A DNA stretch of 34,966 nt, from the NCBI GenBank assembly GCA_944393335.1, contig CALXZV010000002.1:1-34966 (forward strand). The letters run 5' to 3'. Source of the DNA: an uncultured Clostridia bacterium (lineage in GTDB: Bacteria; Bacillota; Clostridia; TANB77; CAG-508). Below are positions 1,721 to 32,609 of this stretch, in pieces. Within the stretch, counting starts at the first letter, position 1; every line of letters starts with the position of its first letter. The notes under the pieces are model-generated. The model saw only the letters and a program-made list of their open reading frames with translations. It ran no database searches and was not told where the DNA came from. Position numbers and translations under genes: made by a program.

Positions 1721-4483
1721 TTATTTTAACTCAAACCAAGTTTTTCCCTCTGAAAGTTCTACTTTAAGTGGGACGTCTAGTTTAGCTGCGTTTTCCATAC
1801 TGCTTTGCAAGATTTGCTTTGCCTGCTCTTTTTGTTCTTCTTTTACCTCTAGTATAAGCTCATCATGTACCTGAAGCACTACTTTAGCATCTAGGTCTTT
1901 TATTCCGTCGAAAACTTTGTTCATTGCTATTTTCATTATGTCTGCTGCTGTTCCTTGTATTGGTGTGTTCATTGCAACTCTTGTTCCAAATTGTCTTACA
2001 ACATAGTTATTTGATTTTAATTCTGGTACATATCTTCTTCTGCCAAAAAGTGTTTCTACAAAGCCTTCTTCTTCTGCCTTTTTTACTATGCCTTCCATGA
2101 ATTCTTTTATTCCACCATATTTTTTTAAGTAACTATTTATATAGTTTTGTGCTTCTTTTCTACCTATTTTTAATTGTTGTGACAATCCAAAAGCTGTTAT
2201 GCCATATATTATACCAAAATTTACAGCTTTTGCATTAGATCTTTGCTCTTTTGTTACTTTTGTAATTGGAACTCCAAATACTTTTGATGCAACCTCTCTA
2301 TGTATGTCTTCATCATTATTAAATGCTTTTATCATTGTTTCATCTTTTGAAATATGTGCCAATACTCTTAATTCAATTTGTGAATAATCTGCATCAACAT
2401 ACACATATCCATCTTTTGCTTTGAAAGATTTTTTTATATTTTTGCCTTCTCCTTCATGGCTAGGTAAGTTTTGAAGGTTTGGATCTGTGCAACTTATTCT
2501 ACCTGTAGCTGTAATTGTTTGATTAAACACAGCATGTATTCTACTGTCTTTTGGATTTATAAATGCAATTAAACCGTCTACATATGTTGAGCTTAGCTTA
2601 ATTAAGCTTCTATATTCTAATACCTTTTCTACTATTGGATGTTCATGTTTTATACCCTCCAATGTTTCCACATCAGTAGCATATCCCTTTTTGTTTTTCT
2701 TTGGTTCTGTTAATTTTAATTTTTCAAACAAGATTTTTCCAAGTTGCTGTGTTGAATTTATATTAAATTCTTCTCCTGCATAATCATAAATTTCTTTTTT
2801 TACTTTTTCTAATCTTTCTTTTAGCTCTTTTCCGAATTTTTCGATTTCTTGCTTTTCTACAAACATTCCGTTAAATTGCATGTCACCAAGGACTCGAACT
2901 AATGGCATTTCTATTTCTTCAAAAAGTTTTATAGAGCCATCTTCCTGCATTTTTTTCATAGTTATCGAATATAAACTATTTAAAGCATAAACATATGCTC
3001 CAACTTCTTCTTTGTTTGAAATATCTTTTACTTGGTCAAACATATTAAGTTGCATATCTTCTTTTTTGGGTATTAAGTCATTTAAGTCTATGTCTAAATA
3101 TTGCGAAGCTATGTCTTTTATGTTATGTTTAGTGTTTGTTGGGTTTAAAATATATGCTGCAACATCTGCATCGTATTTTATGCCTTGCATATTAATTCCA
3201 TATTCTTTTAATAAAACATAATCTTCTTTTATGTTGTAACTTATTTTGCCAACTTTTTTATTTTCCATTATGCTTTTAAGCTTCAATACATCATCTTTGC
3301 CATTTAATTTAGTATATATTATATTTCCATTTTCTTCGTATATACCTATACCTAATATGTCCTTTTTTATAATTCTTGATTCATCATTTGAAGAAGAAGT
3401 TTCAAAATAGAAAATTAAGTCAGAATTTTTTGTTGCAGCCAAATTTTCAGCTAAATCATTAGAATTTTTTGTTGCAGCCAAATTTTCAGCTAAATCATCA
3501 GAGTTCTTTGCTTCATTCAATTCTTGAACCAACTCATCAATATTTTTTTCTATTACATTTATTTTAATTGCTTCTTTTTTTGCCTTTATTTCTTTATCTA
3601 GTCCAAATCTTTCTATAAATCTATTAAAATTAAGCTTTTTAAATATGTCTGCAACTTTTTCTCTATCCCAGTCTACTATTTTTACATCTTCTAAATCTTC
3701 TTTTATTGGTGCTTTTGTATTTATTGTACCAAGTTTTTTTGAAAGCTCTGCTAAATCTTGATTTTTTATTAATGTATCCTTAAGCTTTGATGTTAAATCT
3801 ACTGTTCCATCTTGCAAAGCCTTATATAAATTTGCAATTGTTTTAAATTGTTTTATTAAGCTTGTACCAGTTTTAGGTCCAACATTTGGCACACCTGGAA
3901 TTTCATCTGATGAATCTCCCATAAGTGCTTTTACTTCAATTAAGTCAATTGGCTCTAGGCCGTATTCTTCTTCAACTTTTGCTTTGGTATAAATTTCTGT
4001 TTCTGTTTTACCCATTTTTGTTCTAGGAATTCTAACAGTAATATGGTCTTCTATTAATTGAAATAAGTCTCTATCTCCAGAAAGAATATACACATCTTTG
4101 TCTTCGTGAGCGAACTTTTTAGCTAAAGTTCCAAGTATGTCATCTCCTTCATAGTCTGCCATTTCAATTATTTTTATGTTCATATCTTGCAATACTTCTT
4201 TTATAACAGGCATTTGCTCTGCAAGCTCATTTGGCATGGCATGTCTATGTTTTTTGTACCCTTCATACATCTTTTTTCTAGTATCTGCCGCTGTTTTTGA
4301 GTCAAATGCAATTGCCATATATGTTGGCTCTACTTCTTCCATATTTTTAAACATTATAGATAAAAAGCCATAAATAGCATTTGTGTAATGTCCATCTTTT
4401 GTTGCTAGCATTTTATTTCCCATTATTCCATAAAACGCTCTATTCATTATGCTGTTACCATCAATTAATAAAACCTTTTCCAT
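1721..4483 (-). CDS. polA: DNA polymerase I
   Basis: 920 aa. N-terminal 5'-nuclease domain (LLIDGNSIMNRAFY). Family A polymerase motif A DYSQIELRVLAH, motif B RSNAKAVNFGIIYG and motif C LQVHDELILEV. SD GGAGG lies 4 nt upstream of the ATG. The 3'-5' exo ExoI position reads FYFETSS rather than DxE, so the exonuclease is probably inactive, as in Bacillus-type PolA (inference). Confidence 0.97.
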   Translation of the reverse strand: MEKVLLIDGNSIMNRAFYGIMGNKMLATKDGHYTNAIYGFLSIMFKNMEEVEPTYMAIAFDSKTAADTRKKMYEGYKKHRHAMPNELAEQMPVIKEVLQDMNIKIIEMADYEGDDILGTLAKKFAHEDKDVYILSGDRDLFQLIEDHITVRIPRTKMGKTETEIYTKAKVEEEYGLEPIDLIEVKALMGDSSDEIPGVPNVGPKTGTSLIKQFKTIANLYKALQDGTVDLTSKLKDTLIKNQDLAELSKKLGTINTKAPIKEDLEDVKIVDWDREKVADIFKKLNFNRFIERFGLDKEIKAKKEAIKINVIEKNIDELVQELNEAKNSDDLAENLAATKNSNDLAENLAATKNSDLIFYFETSSSNDESRIIKKDILGIGIYEENGNIIYTKLNGKDDVLKLKSIMENKKVGKISYNIKEDYVLLKEYGINMQGIKYDADVAAYILNPTNTKHNIKDIASQYLDIDLNDLIPKKEDMQLNMFDQVKDISNKEEVGAYVYALNSLYSITMKKMQEDGSIKLFEEIEMPLVRVLGDMQFNGMFVEKQEIEKFGKELKERLEKVKKEIYDYAGEEFNINSTQQLGKILFEKLKLTEPKKNKKGYATDVETLEGIKHEHPIVEKVLEYRSLIKLSSTYVDGLIAFINPKDSRIHAVFNQTITATGRISCTDPNLQNLPSHEGEGKNIKKSFKAKDGYVYVDADYSQIELRVLAHISKDETMIKAFNNDEDIHREVASKVFGVPITKVTKEQRSNAKAVNFGIIYGITAFGLSQQLKIGRKEAQNYINSYLKKYGGIKEFMEGIVKKAEEEGFVETLFGRRRYVPELKSNNYVVRQFGTRVAMNTPIQGTAADIMKIAMNKVFDGIKDLDAKVVLQVHDELILEVKEEQKEQAKQILQSSMENAAKLDVPLKVELSEGKTWFELK
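3422..3499. repeat. In-frame 39-bp tandem duplication inside polA (2 units plus the start of a third)
   Basis: Unit AGAATTTTTTGTTGCAGCCAAATTTTCAGCTAAATCATT at 3422-3460 is repeated at 3461-3499 with one mismatch. It encodes DLAENLAATKNS(N/D) twice, in the linker between the 5'-nuclease and exo-like domains. Confidence 0.92.
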
Positions 4484-30389: not shown

Positions 30390-30471
30390 ATTAACCTCAC
30401 ATTTTTATTATTTTATTATTTATTAATAAATCAACTTATTTTACGCACTAAATATATCAAAAAATGCAAAA

Positions 30472-30511
30472 AAATACAAGTATTTCACTATAAAATGATA
30501 TACTTGTATTT
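30472..30511 (-). terminator. Rho-independent terminator candidate for the 423-aa secreted-protein gene
   Basis: 12-bp stem AAATACAAGTAT (30472-30483) / ATACTTGTATTT (30500-30511) with a 16-nt loop. On the minus strand it is followed by UUUUGCAUUUUUU. The stem is A/U-rich and therefore weak. Confidence 0.5.
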
Positions 30512-30554: not shown

Positions 30555-31826
30555 CTATTCAATAATCTCGTATGCTGTTTGGGCAGTTTTTCCATCTCCT
30601 GTACCCAATCTAGCGTTAGAATTTATTGTAACTACAGGAAATAATGGTAGACTGTCACTGCTACTATACATACCTGAATCTATCATATAACCTATTCTTG
30701 TTCCCACCTCTCCATTATATATTGTTGTAATAATAAAATGACAGTAATCATAGAATGTATCTACACATCGTGAGCTCATCCAATAAAATGTACTAGTTCC
30801 ATTTGGAAGAAATATATCATAGTAATTTCTTCCGTTTTCTAATTTTTTAAATGCCGTTTGTAAAAATGCATTACTTGCATACCAAAATGTCTGATATGGC
30901 TGTATACTTGTATTGGCCATAATATACCCAGTTGAATTTGTTGCTCCTTTATCATTTCTCCCTATTAGTCCATTTTGTTCACTTAATCCAAGACCACTTT
31001 CCTTTTTATTTCCATCTATTACACTAAGTTTTTCTTCTGCATAAATAATTGGATACTTTCTATTATTAATATATGCATTTCCTGTTTGATTTAAATATTT
31101 TGTTCCATTATATACAAGATTATTTGCTTCTTCTAATGCTGCTTCAGTCATCTTTGCTTTTAGATCTTCTACTTTTATACTTCTTGCTTCTATGTTTTTA
31201 CTGCTATCACCATATAAATTACTACATGCTTCATCTAATAATTGTACCCCATTATTATATCCTTGAGCTTCTCCTAAATATACTGTACCTTTAGTTGGTT
31301 CTGCTGGAACCAATTCTACTTTCCCATTTTCTTCATCAATTGATAATATTCTCCACTTTTCTATCTTGTAATTTGCATCTGAACTATTTAATATTACATC
31401 ATCAGTTTTAGGTGTTTTTACTGTTGAACAATATTCAGCTTGCCATGTATATGTCCCACTTGGCACATATTCTATATAATCTCCTATTTGGCACATACCT
31501 AATGTTCTATATGTTCCTGTTATTTTCTTTCCATCTACATATGCTGTTTTTCCATATATTATATCTTCGGGAGTTGCAGTTGCATCTGATGTATCTAAAT
31601 CTTCTAATGTTCCTGTTACTCCTCCTAATGTTATTCCTGCTTTTATATATTCTGGTAATAAGTTTCCATTATTTGAACTACCATTTGATGAATTATATTT
31701 ACCATTTGCTATATTTACTCTTATAGCGTTCATTCCTAATACTAAGCCAATTATTACTATTATCGTAATTATTGATATTAGTATAATTAACTTTTGTTTC
31801 TTACTCATCTTTTTCATTTTATACAT
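30555..31826 (-). CDS. Secreted or membrane-anchored protein of unknown function
   Basis: 423-aa ORF. The probable start is the ATG at 31817 (MKKMSKKQK), with AAAGGA 10 nt upstream; the first ATG abuts the SD. Features: N-terminal signal/anchor helix LIILISIITIIVIIGLVLG, an N/S-rich linker, the motif GGVTGT...ATATPEDIIYGKTAYVDGKKITGT, and a C-terminal region with YWMSSRC ... LFPVVTI. I recognised no enzymatic motif. Confidence 0.6.
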   Translation of the reverse strand: MYKMKKMSKKQKLIILISIITIIVIIGLVLGMNAIRVNIANGKYNSSNGSSNNGNLLPEYIKAGITLGGVTGTLEDLDTSDATATPEDIIYGKTAYVDGKKITGTYRTLGMCQIGDYIEYVPSGTYTWQAEYCSTVKTPKTDDVILNSSDANYKIEKWRILSIDEENGKVELVPAEPTKGTVYLGEAQGYNNGVQLLDEACSNLYGDSSKNIEARSIKVEDLKAKMTEAALEEANNLVYNGTKYLNQTGNAYINNRKYPIIYAEEKLSVIDGNKKESGLGLSEQNGLIGRNDKGATNSTGYIMANTSIQPYQTFWYASNAFLQTAFKKLENGRNYYDIFLPNGTSTFYWMSSRCVDTFYDYCHFIITTIYNGEVGTRIGYMIDSGMYSSSDSLPLFPVVTINSNARLGTGDGKTAQTAYEIIE

Positions 31827-31911
31827 TTCCTTTCAATATCTTATTCTTAATTTTCTGTTTTCTATATTAATTTTTATAATTCAACATTTTCTTATATACA
31901 TTGCACGCAAA

Positions 31912-31960
31912 AAGCTATGTACTTCAAGCGAATTTTAAATTCGCAAAAAATACATAGCTT
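31912..31960 (-). terminator. Long compound hairpin with a U-run, between the leader ORF and the 423-aa gene (terminator/attenuator candidate)
   Basis: Outer stem AAGCTATGTA (31912-31921) / TACATAGCTT (31951-31960). About 4 further U-A/U-G pairs are possible. Inner stem GCGAATT (31928-31934) / AATTCGC (31938-31944) has a 3-nt loop. The minus-strand 3' side reads AGCUUUUUGCG. Confidence 0.5.
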
Positions 31961-31996
31961 CTTTTCTATGTCTACATAATATTGTTTTATTAAATT

Positions 31997-32053
31997 CTAC
32001 GATATATATATATATATATATACAGCCTCAAGGCTTTCCGCGTTTTTTATCAT
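31997..32053 (-). CDS. Candidate 18-codon leader peptide MIKNAESLEAVYIYIYIS, reading through the (TA)10 tract
   Basis: SD AGGAG (32064-32060) lies 6 nt upstream of the ATG (32053-32051). The TAG stop is at 31999-31997. The last seven sense codons are encoded by the microsatellite. It is too short to assess by coding statistics. Confidence 0.3.
   Translation of the reverse strand: MIKNAESLEAVYIYIYIS
32002..32022. repeat. (AT/TA) dinucleotide microsatellite, 10.5 units
   Basis: An uninterrupted alternating ATATAT... tract of 21 nt is read directly at 32002-32022. Confidence 0.97.
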
Positions 32054-32075
32054 TTTTTACTCCTATTTTTTCTTT

Positions 32076-32104
32076 ATTCTATCATAAATATTTTTTATTC
32101 ACAA
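32076..32104 (-). promoter_or_regulatory. Candidate promoter for the leader ORF and secreted-protein transcript
   Basis: On the minus strand: TTGTGA (32104-32099), a 17-nt spacer, then TG-extended -10 TGATAGAAT (TAGAAT at 32081-32076). It lies about 12-15 nt upstream of the leader SD. Sequence match only. Confidence 0.35.
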
Positions 32105-32174
32105 TCAAATATTTTTGTCTTTTTTATGTTTATATCACTGTTTCTATCCATCTTTTTATTATTCATTTTTAACT

Positions 32175-32609
32175 TTATAACTCTAATTTAGCTAATTCTT
32201 CTTTACTTATATCTAGAATTTTACAAATATCTTCATTACTTTTCATTATTTCTCCGACCTCCTTATTATTTGGATCGTTTATGAATAATGCCCATTGTGC
32301 CTTTTTATTTTGCTTGTTTTTTTCATATTCGCTCCTTACTTTGGATAGTTCTATTATATCTATTTCAATTTTATCTGTCAATACGAGGTCTTGGTTATTT
32401 TCTTCTCTTAGCTTCCATTTTGTTTCCATTGCCTTTATTTCTTTTGTTAAATTTAAGTTATAATCTAGTATTGCTACCATTATAACTCTTTTAGCTTTTT
32501 CGTAGTCATCACCTCTTTTTATTTCATTTGAATATAGCTTTGAAAAGTAATAAAGCAATCTTTCTTGGATATTATTTAATGATTTATACTCAATTTTGAA
32601 GAATTTTAC
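32175..32609 (-). pseudogene. 5'-truncated Rpn / PD-(D/E)XK-family recombination-promoting nuclease (putative transposase) remnant
   Basis: The frame stays open upstream of the tracked TTG start and reads FKIEYKSLNNIQERLLYYFSKLYSNEIKRGDDYEKAKRVIMVAILDYNL. This matches the mid-to-C-terminal part of PDDEXK_2/Rpn proteins (IEIQ...LYYWSKLY...GD.Y). The N-terminal nuclease half (~120-150 aa) is absent, and the frame ends against the rpiA stop. Confidence 0.7.

Follow-up and report, generated by a model that had tools for sequence, protein, structure and literature searches.

What decides whether a surface-protein gene is expressed when the 348-nt gap on its 5' side holds, in order, a promoter, a Shine-Dalgarno (SD) sequence, a short upstream open reading frame (uORF), ten consecutive TA units and a hairpin ending in a U-run? 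This arrangement is found in contig CALXZV010000002.1 (assembly GCA_944393335.1) of an uncultured Clostridia bacterium (TANB77; CAG-508). All coordinates given here refer to the window, that is, the whole stretch of 34,966 nt that was analysed, and all parts of the putative switch lie on its minus strand, as do all long open reading frames of this AT-rich sequence (GC content ~26%). A preliminary description of the same DNA had located each of these parts and had read them together as a phase-variable attenuator. Every part was found where it had been placed, and family conservation, covariation in the hairpin stem, the design of the reading frames and variation of the tract length support that reading, according to which the locus probably harbours a transcription attenuator controlled by the number of repeats in a leader reading frame, and acting as a heritable and stochastic phase-variation switch for the surface-protein gene.

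The TA tract is situated inside the uORF, the last 7 of whose 18 codons are the repeat itself, 54 nt 3' of the -10 element and 186 nt 5' of the ATG of the gene. Tandem Repeats Finder reports it as 10.5 TA copies and as the sole dinucleotide array in the 35-kb window; 0.03 TA runs of 20 nt are expected by chance, and the observed count was reached in none of 100 shuffled sequences. The hairpin located further 3' consists of a 17-bp outer stem and a 7-bp inner stem followed by U5, so that its presence is confirmed with ~24 pairs instead of the ~21 first described. Assessed by folding, it proves strong (-28.1 kcal/mol, z = -6.1), none of 200 shuffled sequences folding equally well; a simple terminator scan of the window did not call it because the compound stem falls outside the pattern of that scan. 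Between the hairpin and the gene, a consensus scan of the window found no convincing promoter, as had also been the impression of the preliminary description. The whole window gave zero matches to Rfam 15 at gathering score, and a permissive Rfam scan of the switch region returned one match only, at chance level (E = 6).

The number n of TA units determines where the uORF ends. With n = 1 mod 3 (10, 7 or 4 units), the case of the window, it finishes in TCG-TAG, 33 nt before the hairpin, and with n = 2 mod 3 (8 or 11 units) it finishes at position +10, 26 nt before the hairpin. With n = 0 mod 3 (9 or 12 units) the uORF gains 22 codons, crosses the whole 5' arm of the hairpin and stops within its loop. 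Removing one unit from the window tract thus takes the frame to the TAA in the inner loop, and adding one takes it to the earlier TAA (both in Table 1), exactly as previously described.

These elements suggest the following course of events. Transcription would start at the extended -10 promoter and ribosomes would translate the short uORF, whose final codons are (TA)n; ~35 nt further on a strong putative intrinsic terminator would be encountered, and after it the gene, which has an SD of its own. During replication, slipped-strand mispairing would alter n by whole TA units, setting in this way the frame in which the uORF continues after the tract. With n = 1 or 2 mod 3, the terminator would fold and most transcripts would end at ~31909, leaving the gene in a low or OFF state, and with n = 0 mod 3 a translating ribosome would keep the stem open as the RNA polymerase crosses the U-run, allowing read-through and the ON state. 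We infer both the translation of the uORF and the termination at the hairpin from their sequence features, and we assign the ON and OFF states because of the analogy with the pil1 and pil3 loci of Streptococcus gallolyticus (Danne et al. 2014, PMC3894217) and because of the points at which the long frames of hairpin-less variants end. On these grounds, the window copy with (TA)10 is predicted to be in the OFF or low state and L188, an allele of this locus with (TA)12, is predicted to be ON (L numbers designate the loci compared in this work).

That the tract is not invariant is directly observed. When members of the 90% cluster of the window protein were traced to their contigs, the same locus, which has (TA)10 in the window, was seen to carry (TA)12 in L188 and L189 and (TA)7 in L190, with flanks that differ by 2-3 single-nucleotide polymorphisms plus one indel over ~330 nt; in L188 the exact 40-aa uORF is present and has been annotated as a gene. 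Orthologous copies elsewhere, grouped by gapped alignment, also differ in unit number, with 10 and 8 units in two pairs (L100/L122 and L079/L139), 10 and 4 in another (L089/L128), and 9, 10 and 11 in a trio (L066/L110/L136). Over the 59 copies scored in all, n takes the values 4, 7, 8, 9, 10, 11 and 12, with n = 10 in 34 of them, and the uORF is short in 45 and long in 9, as would be anticipated for a multi-copy family with the majority of its members OFF. Numerous contigs terminate at the tract, and two short contigs with close orthologues of the gene start 24-31 nt after the tract position (L001:1-30 and L002:1-25); such ends fit either heterogeneity of the tract or collapse of the repeat in assembly. 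The poly-A run straight after the uORF ATG (32050-32043 in the window) also varies in length between orthologous copies (L089/L128, L059/L103 and L100/L122; A10 versus A6, A5 versus A7), one extra A breaking the uORF frame in L100, and these differences may point to another slippery tract or may be sequencing errors in a homopolymer.

The arrangement is not confined to this locus. A distant homologue, whose protein is 44% identical, has a leader ATGATAAAGGCTGAAAGCCTTGGGGCTG(TA)12 followed by a terminator (L018), and a pattern scan of metagenome contigs with AGCCNNNNGGCTGTATATATA matched at least 120 loci, about half of which are true members; a hidden Markov model (HMM) built from these added copies with imperfect motifs. 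At least 59 copies, with the parts in identical order, occur in gut metagenomes and in metagenome-assembled genomes (MAGs) of Clostridia belonging to several species. Their shared plan comprises the promoter, SD and ATG, ~5 variable codons, GAA-AGCC-TTGR-GGCT-G, (TA)n, TCGTA[G/A]G.TTTAAT..., the segment TTATGTAAAYATAGC, a 16-24-bp terminator hairpin with a U-run, and the gene. Nearly all copies have an extended -10 TGnTATAAT ~25-35 nt before the SD, most have an in-frame ATG 15-18 nt before the AGCC motif, and the regulated gene, with its own SD, begins 100-240 nt after the tract; nearly all downstream proteins have pilin-like or transmembrane-anchor N-termini. Copy numbers per assembly reach 11 in ERZ1643247, 8 in OLWB01 and 5 in VOFC01, and tandem modules precede successive genes on one contig, for example in L079, L148, L082 and L100. 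Paired modules may lie ~1.8 kb apart, each before its own pilin-like gene and with differing TA numbers, such as 10 and 9 (L079:525-666 and 2316-2449; L148:3740-3883 and 1861-1991; L100; and VOFC01001435.1, that is, L089 and L136). Mosaic copies are also observed (L103/L144, L070/L173 and L066/L110), which share 99% identity on the post-tract and gene sides and only ~70% on the promoter sides, the converse occurring too; this is due either to recombination at the conserved core or to chimeric assembly at a multi-copy repeat.

Some relatives depart from the shared plan. L036 encodes two paralogous members of the protein family (230-372 and 3850-3995), each with TTGTGAGAG(TA)11-12TTGCAG ~90 nt before its ATG and with neither an SD/ATG uORF nor a hairpin; this arrangement may represent a promoter-type or 5' untranslated region-type TA switch related to the cassette. 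In others the tract sits in the centre of a long palindrome, GTGGCTG(TA)nCACAGCCAC with n = 14, 5 or 4, or is a mixed (TA)4(CA)5-6 array (L159:3555-3640 in QRFC01000044.1, L168, L174, L095, L111 and L053:2492-2636).

The terminator and the frames leading into it behave across the family as conserved elements. The stem is retained when the terminators are folded as a consensus (9 compound and 20 simple versions), with double compensatory changes in 4-5 pairs; one pair occurs as GC in 11 sequences, as AU in 7 and as GU in 2; in L002 the stem is preserved through G-U changes that fit this strand only. Among 34 distinct core sequences, the stops encountered before the end of the 5' arm of the hairpin number 70 in frame A (n = 1 mod 3), 123 in frame B (n = 2 mod 3) and 0 in frame C (n = 0 mod 3). 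The stop of frame A is fixed at +3 and that of frame B at +10, both swapping between TAG and TAA across copies as genuine stop codons would, and frame C ends between +53 and +74, always within the hairpin, even in copies whose spacing is changed by indels. Three divergent sub-families, L018, L052 and L037, are unrelated to the core after the tract and likewise have one long frame that ends in or beside the hairpin; in L018 it amounts to 44 codons, and the probability of finding no stop over that length is 0.012 by shuffling. In addition, just 30-45 nt separate hairpin and ATG in L082, L086, L106, L110 and L124, a gap too short for a promoter, so that those genes would be reachable only via read-through.

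Copies devoid of a hairpin, in which the uORF and (TA)n directly precede a gene, were also found in L065, L096, L133 (two copies) and L082 (11828-11902), as well as on viral contigs (L077/L179 and L181). In these, only the long frame ends on the start codon of the next gene (TAATG, ATGA or TAAAATG), a geometry typical of translational coupling, which suggests such coupling under control of the repeat and lends independent support to the assignment of the ON state. Several of them belong to phage tail modules, being located beside a phrog_372 tail protein and minor tail proteins and before lysis genes; a PHROGs search gave no match for the proteins just downstream of the phage-borne variants, and only neighbouring tail proteins were matched. 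A wider reading, which we put forward tentatively, is that all these copies belong to a portable TA-switch cassette, conserved in sequence and present many times per genome in low-GC gut Clostridia and their phages. Such a cassette would have two output modes, override of a terminator and a uORF ending on the next start codon, and its copies together would vary, combinatorially and stochastically, many pilin-like surface proteins as well as phage tail components, with reshuffling by recombination at the core.

Several points weigh against the proposal of a repeat-controlled attenuator: (i) its support is all comparative; (ii) in the window alone, the shuffle probability of the open frame is only 0.076, and the core copies are closely related, so the openness of frame C is partly inherited and not independently maintained; (iii) (TA)10 prevails among the copies, which could be due to selection for a given length and not to free switching; (iv) 85 nt lie between the U-run and the SD of the gene in the window, where a weak separate promoter is possible; (v) the closest orthologues of the gene (L004 and L184-L187), which fall in the 90%-identity cluster of the window protein, with L004 at 93% identity, are devoid of the module, showing that the gene does not require the switch in order to exist; and (vi) transcription and translation are loosely coupled in some Firmicutes, with 'runaway transcription' in B. 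subtilis, which could limit the access of ribosomes to the terminator. Finally, (vii) folding without the 3' arm of the terminator reveals a 7-bp alternative pairing between +24..+38 and its 5' arm, which is paired in 93% of cells, with zero double compensatory changes; its conservation may hint at an RNA logic beyond simple override by ribosomes, and an antiterminator role for it is possible.

One alternative, which we consider unlikely, is that the leader and terminator form a conserved unit whose control is independent of tract length and comes, for instance, from a protein or small RNA that binds the AGCC-TTGR-GGCU hairpin, or from the +24..+38 segment serving as an antiterminator; the TA tract would then be a tolerated microsatellite, drifting neutrally. 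Conservation of the mini-hairpin and of the TTATGTAAAYATAGC segment at the nucleotide level, the retention of the alternative pairing and the strong preference for (TA)10 are in keeping with it. Nonetheless, the mini-hairpin is dispensable in some copies, being imperfect or absent in a few and missing in copy 2 of L100; the alternative pairing has no compensatory change; and neutral drift leaves unexplained the fixed end points of all three post-tract frames, one of which always reaches the hairpin. Nor does drift account for the retention of the same frame logic where the post-tract sequence is unrelated and where no hairpin exists.

It appears rather improbable that the module is a repeated, recombination-prone promoter/terminator element whose hairpin shields the gene from transcription arriving from upstream, with a uORF and tract of no effect and the gene driven by a separate promoter past the hairpin. 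The 85-nt interval in the window could accommodate such a promoter, and the orthologous loci devoid of the module, the mosaic copies that share one side and differ in the other, the frequent contig breaks at the tract and the frequent neighbourhood of Rpn-like nuclease genes speak for it. However, a strong extended -10 aimed at a terminator in nearly every copy would be senseless for a pure insulator, a promoter would not fit between hairpin and ATG in the many copies with the short spacing, and the scan of the window found no convincing one there.

A classical attenuator sensing amino acids, in which a ribosome stalled on Tyr (UAU) or Ile (AUA) codons would let an antiterminator form, is highly improbable, even though Tyr and Ile codons alternate at the end of the uORF and a weak pairing of the 2:3 type is present. 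Such codons simply follow from repeating TA, and ATA and TAT are ordinary codons at 26% GC; otherwise identical loci differ freely in how many of them they contain; the genes downstream are for surface, pilin-like and phage tail proteins and not for Tyr or Ile biosynthesis or transport; and the candidate antiterminator is conserved without compensatory change. A chance arrangement, or the decayed 3' end and terminator of a truncated Rpn-like gene, for which the pseudogene remnant might speak, as only 142 nt lie between its end and the uORF's AGCC motif (32035), is effectively refuted by the family data, the module recurring with its own promoter behind many unrelated upstream genes and its hairpin and tract being far beyond chance.

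Regarding the controlled gene, its existence as described is upheld, but its start is most likely the ATG at 31817, preceded by the SD GAAAGGA (31834-31828) and called likewise in other assemblies, which yields 420 aa instead of the 423 aa first reported; in an exact sequence look-up the 420-aa form was matched and the 423-aa form was not. Pfam and NCBIfam searches assigned the 420-aa protein to no family, yet its own family counts >1,000 members in MAGs of uncultured gut 'Clostridia', most of them with the pilin-like N-terminus GITLIALVITIIVLLILAG, and resemblance to GspG is only sub-threshold. The AlphaFold2 model, built on a 17-sequence alignment, is unusable (predicted local distance difference test score of 35.7). 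A terminator-like hairpin with U7 lies right after the gene, for which reason the unit formed by switch and gene looks monocistronic.

Table 1. Coordinates of the switch elements, the controlled gene and adjacent features in the window.
Feature	Position	Strand	Remarks
Promoter: -35 TTGTGA (32104-32099), 17-nt spacer with TG (32084-32083), -10 TAGAAT (32081-32076)	32076-32104	minus	Consensus scan
Shine-Dalgarno sequence AGGAG	32060-32064	minus	6-nt spacer to uORF ATG at 32053; purine-rich SD kept in the family
Leader uORF, present phase: 18 codons MIKNAESLEAVYIYIYIS plus TAG (31999-31997)	31997-32053	minus	
Mini-hairpin AGCC-TTGA-GGCT, immediately 5' of the tract	32024-32035	minus	Nucleotide-level conservation across species
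(TA)10 microsatellite, final codons of the uORF	32003-32022	minus	
TAA ending the uORF when n = 2 mod 3 (e.g. 11 units)	31990-31992	minus	+10 stop throughout the family, TAA or TAG
ACATAG, candidate antiterminator	31966-31971	minus	Could base-pair with CTATGT (31957-31952) in the 5' arm of the terminator
Predicted compound intrinsic-terminator hairpin	31909-31963	minus	U5 at 31913-31909
TAA in the hairpin inner loop	31935-31937	minus	Ends a 40-codon uORF when n = 0 mod 3 (9 or 12 units)
Controlled gene, 420-aa protein with N-terminal membrane anchor	30555-31817	minus	423 aa if the start is 31826
Terminator-like hairpin plus U7, directly after the gene	30468-30511	minus	-20.9 kcal/mol, z = -5.6
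5' neighbour: N-terminally truncated PD-(D/E)XK (Rpn-like) remnant	32175-32558	minus	PF12784, profile positions 86-198 of 229

Downstream of the gene and its hairpin there is a long polysaccharide cluster encoding GT1, GT2 and GT4 glycosyltransferases, an O-antigen-ligase-like protein and an ABC-2 transporter, and the genes further upstream of the gap include rpiA and one for an AAA_14/DUF4143 ATPase. The Rpn-like remnant is outside the switch, yet sequences of this kind recur next to such modules: in at least 7 loci (the window, L070, L112, L119, L134, L135 and L157), an Rpn-like ('recombination-promoting nuclease') gene, whole or as a remnant, comes to its end 80-140 nt before the switch, and these genes may be linked to the shuffling of cassettes. 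The 3' end of the window remnant contains a 32-nt tandem duplication (2.1 copies, 77% matches, 32175-32241). At the module-free loci (L004:2480-3000 and L184-L187:1008-1500), the gene is preceded by genes of the capsule type, for an AAA_31/ParA-like kinase and CpsB_CapC, and by a shorter remnant of the Rpn gene, and homology with the window picks up only from the SD of the gene. Elsewhere in the window, a 40-nt direct repeat, 85% identical (53-92 and 1673-1712; TTTTCG.TTTAGGACCGTCCCCAA..GAAAAA), follows a gene in both instances and is probably a shared terminator-like element.

The locus can be compared with several known systems. In the hifA/hifB system of H. influenzae, a (TA)n tract in the spacer of overlapping divergent promoters is said to vary by slippage, with (TA)9-11, and to make a surface appendage phase-variable (van Ham and co-workers, 1993). 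The likeness lies in the slippage-variable TA tract; the hif tract, however, separates -35 and -10 and alters promoter spacing, whereas the tract considered here is found within a uORF, 3' of the -10 and not between the two promoter elements, and would act through the reading frame, so a hif-type promoter-spacer switch was discarded. A repeat switch within a coding sequence was discarded as well, the tract being upstream of the gene ATG and in a separate reading frame. In cwpV of C. difficile, an invertible element of the 5' leader reportedly makes or removes a terminator (Emerson and co-workers, 2009), and there too a heritable change in leader DNA would decide on the premature termination of a surface-protein gene in Clostridia; cwpV relies on inversion by a recombinase between inverted repeats, in contrast to a microsatellite, and an inverton of this type was rejected at our locus, zero inverted repeats flanking 31800-32200 among the 25 longest of 33 pairs (seed 12, minimum length 20). 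With the leaders of the trp/his/ilv and erm/cat types the locus shares a short, putatively translated leader 5' of an RNA structure sensitive to the position of the ribosome, but those leaders sense tRNA charging or antibiotics reversibly and in every cell, and here the end point of the ribosome would be set by a heritable change in DNA length, with no physiological signal implied.

To our knowledge, phase variation in gut commensals has been described mainly from invertible promoters of Bacteroidales and from repeats in a few pathogens, and we know of almost nothing on it in the abundant uncultured Clostridia. Should the proposed mechanism hold, the repeat switch combining leader peptide and terminator would be a general and widely used device, reaching beyond two pilus loci of one streptococcal species. 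Its signature, written as an HMM or pattern, would find phase-variable surface genes and read their ON or OFF state from metagenomes by n mod 3, and the recurrent assembly breaks at these loci would be explained. The phage-borne coupled version hints, in addition, at repeat-driven variation of tail components, in parallel to other systems by which phages diversify their host range.

The closest parallel is provided by pil1 and pil3 of S. gallolyticus, the only case of the mechanism returned by full-text literature searches, which gave none for a TA version. There, GCAGA repeats in a leader-peptide gene set its frame; expression is low when the leader stops 28 nt or more ahead of a stem-loop terminator, and high, through translation-dependent interference by the ribosome, when it stops at or inside the terminator, the repeat number differing between isolates (Danne et al. 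2014, PMC3894217). The attenuation logic is therefore not new, contrary to the preliminary description, which was not aware of it; what appears to be undescribed is the family of TA cassettes, with the number of its copies, its distribution in Clostridia and its phage-borne, translationally coupled variant. The window shares with both pil loci the succession of a promoter, an SD-preceded leader frame containing a simple repeat, a predicted terminator tens of nt further on and a gene for a surface structure, together with variation between strains and extension of the frame by the repeat. Its hairpin (-28 kcal/mol) is comparable to theirs (-18.7 and -28.2), and its stop-to-hairpin spacing of 33 nt is closely comparable too. 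Homology of the leaders was not found, as judged, without alignment to the pil1 leader, from a repeat unit that is TA and not GCAGA, and the resemblance is one of analogy and not of shared descent. The unit is a dinucleotide here (7-12 units, 14-24 nt) and a pentanucleotide there (13-22 units), and only a single shifted frame extends to the hairpin, as against both in pil1. Whereas the pil system is known from two loci of one streptococcus and governs sortase pili, the TA module is a conserved multi-copy cassette of uncultured low-GC Clostridia that would govern pilin-like or membrane-anchored proteins, and it is accompanied by a hairpin-less variant, putatively acting through translational coupling, whose copies extend into phage tail modules.

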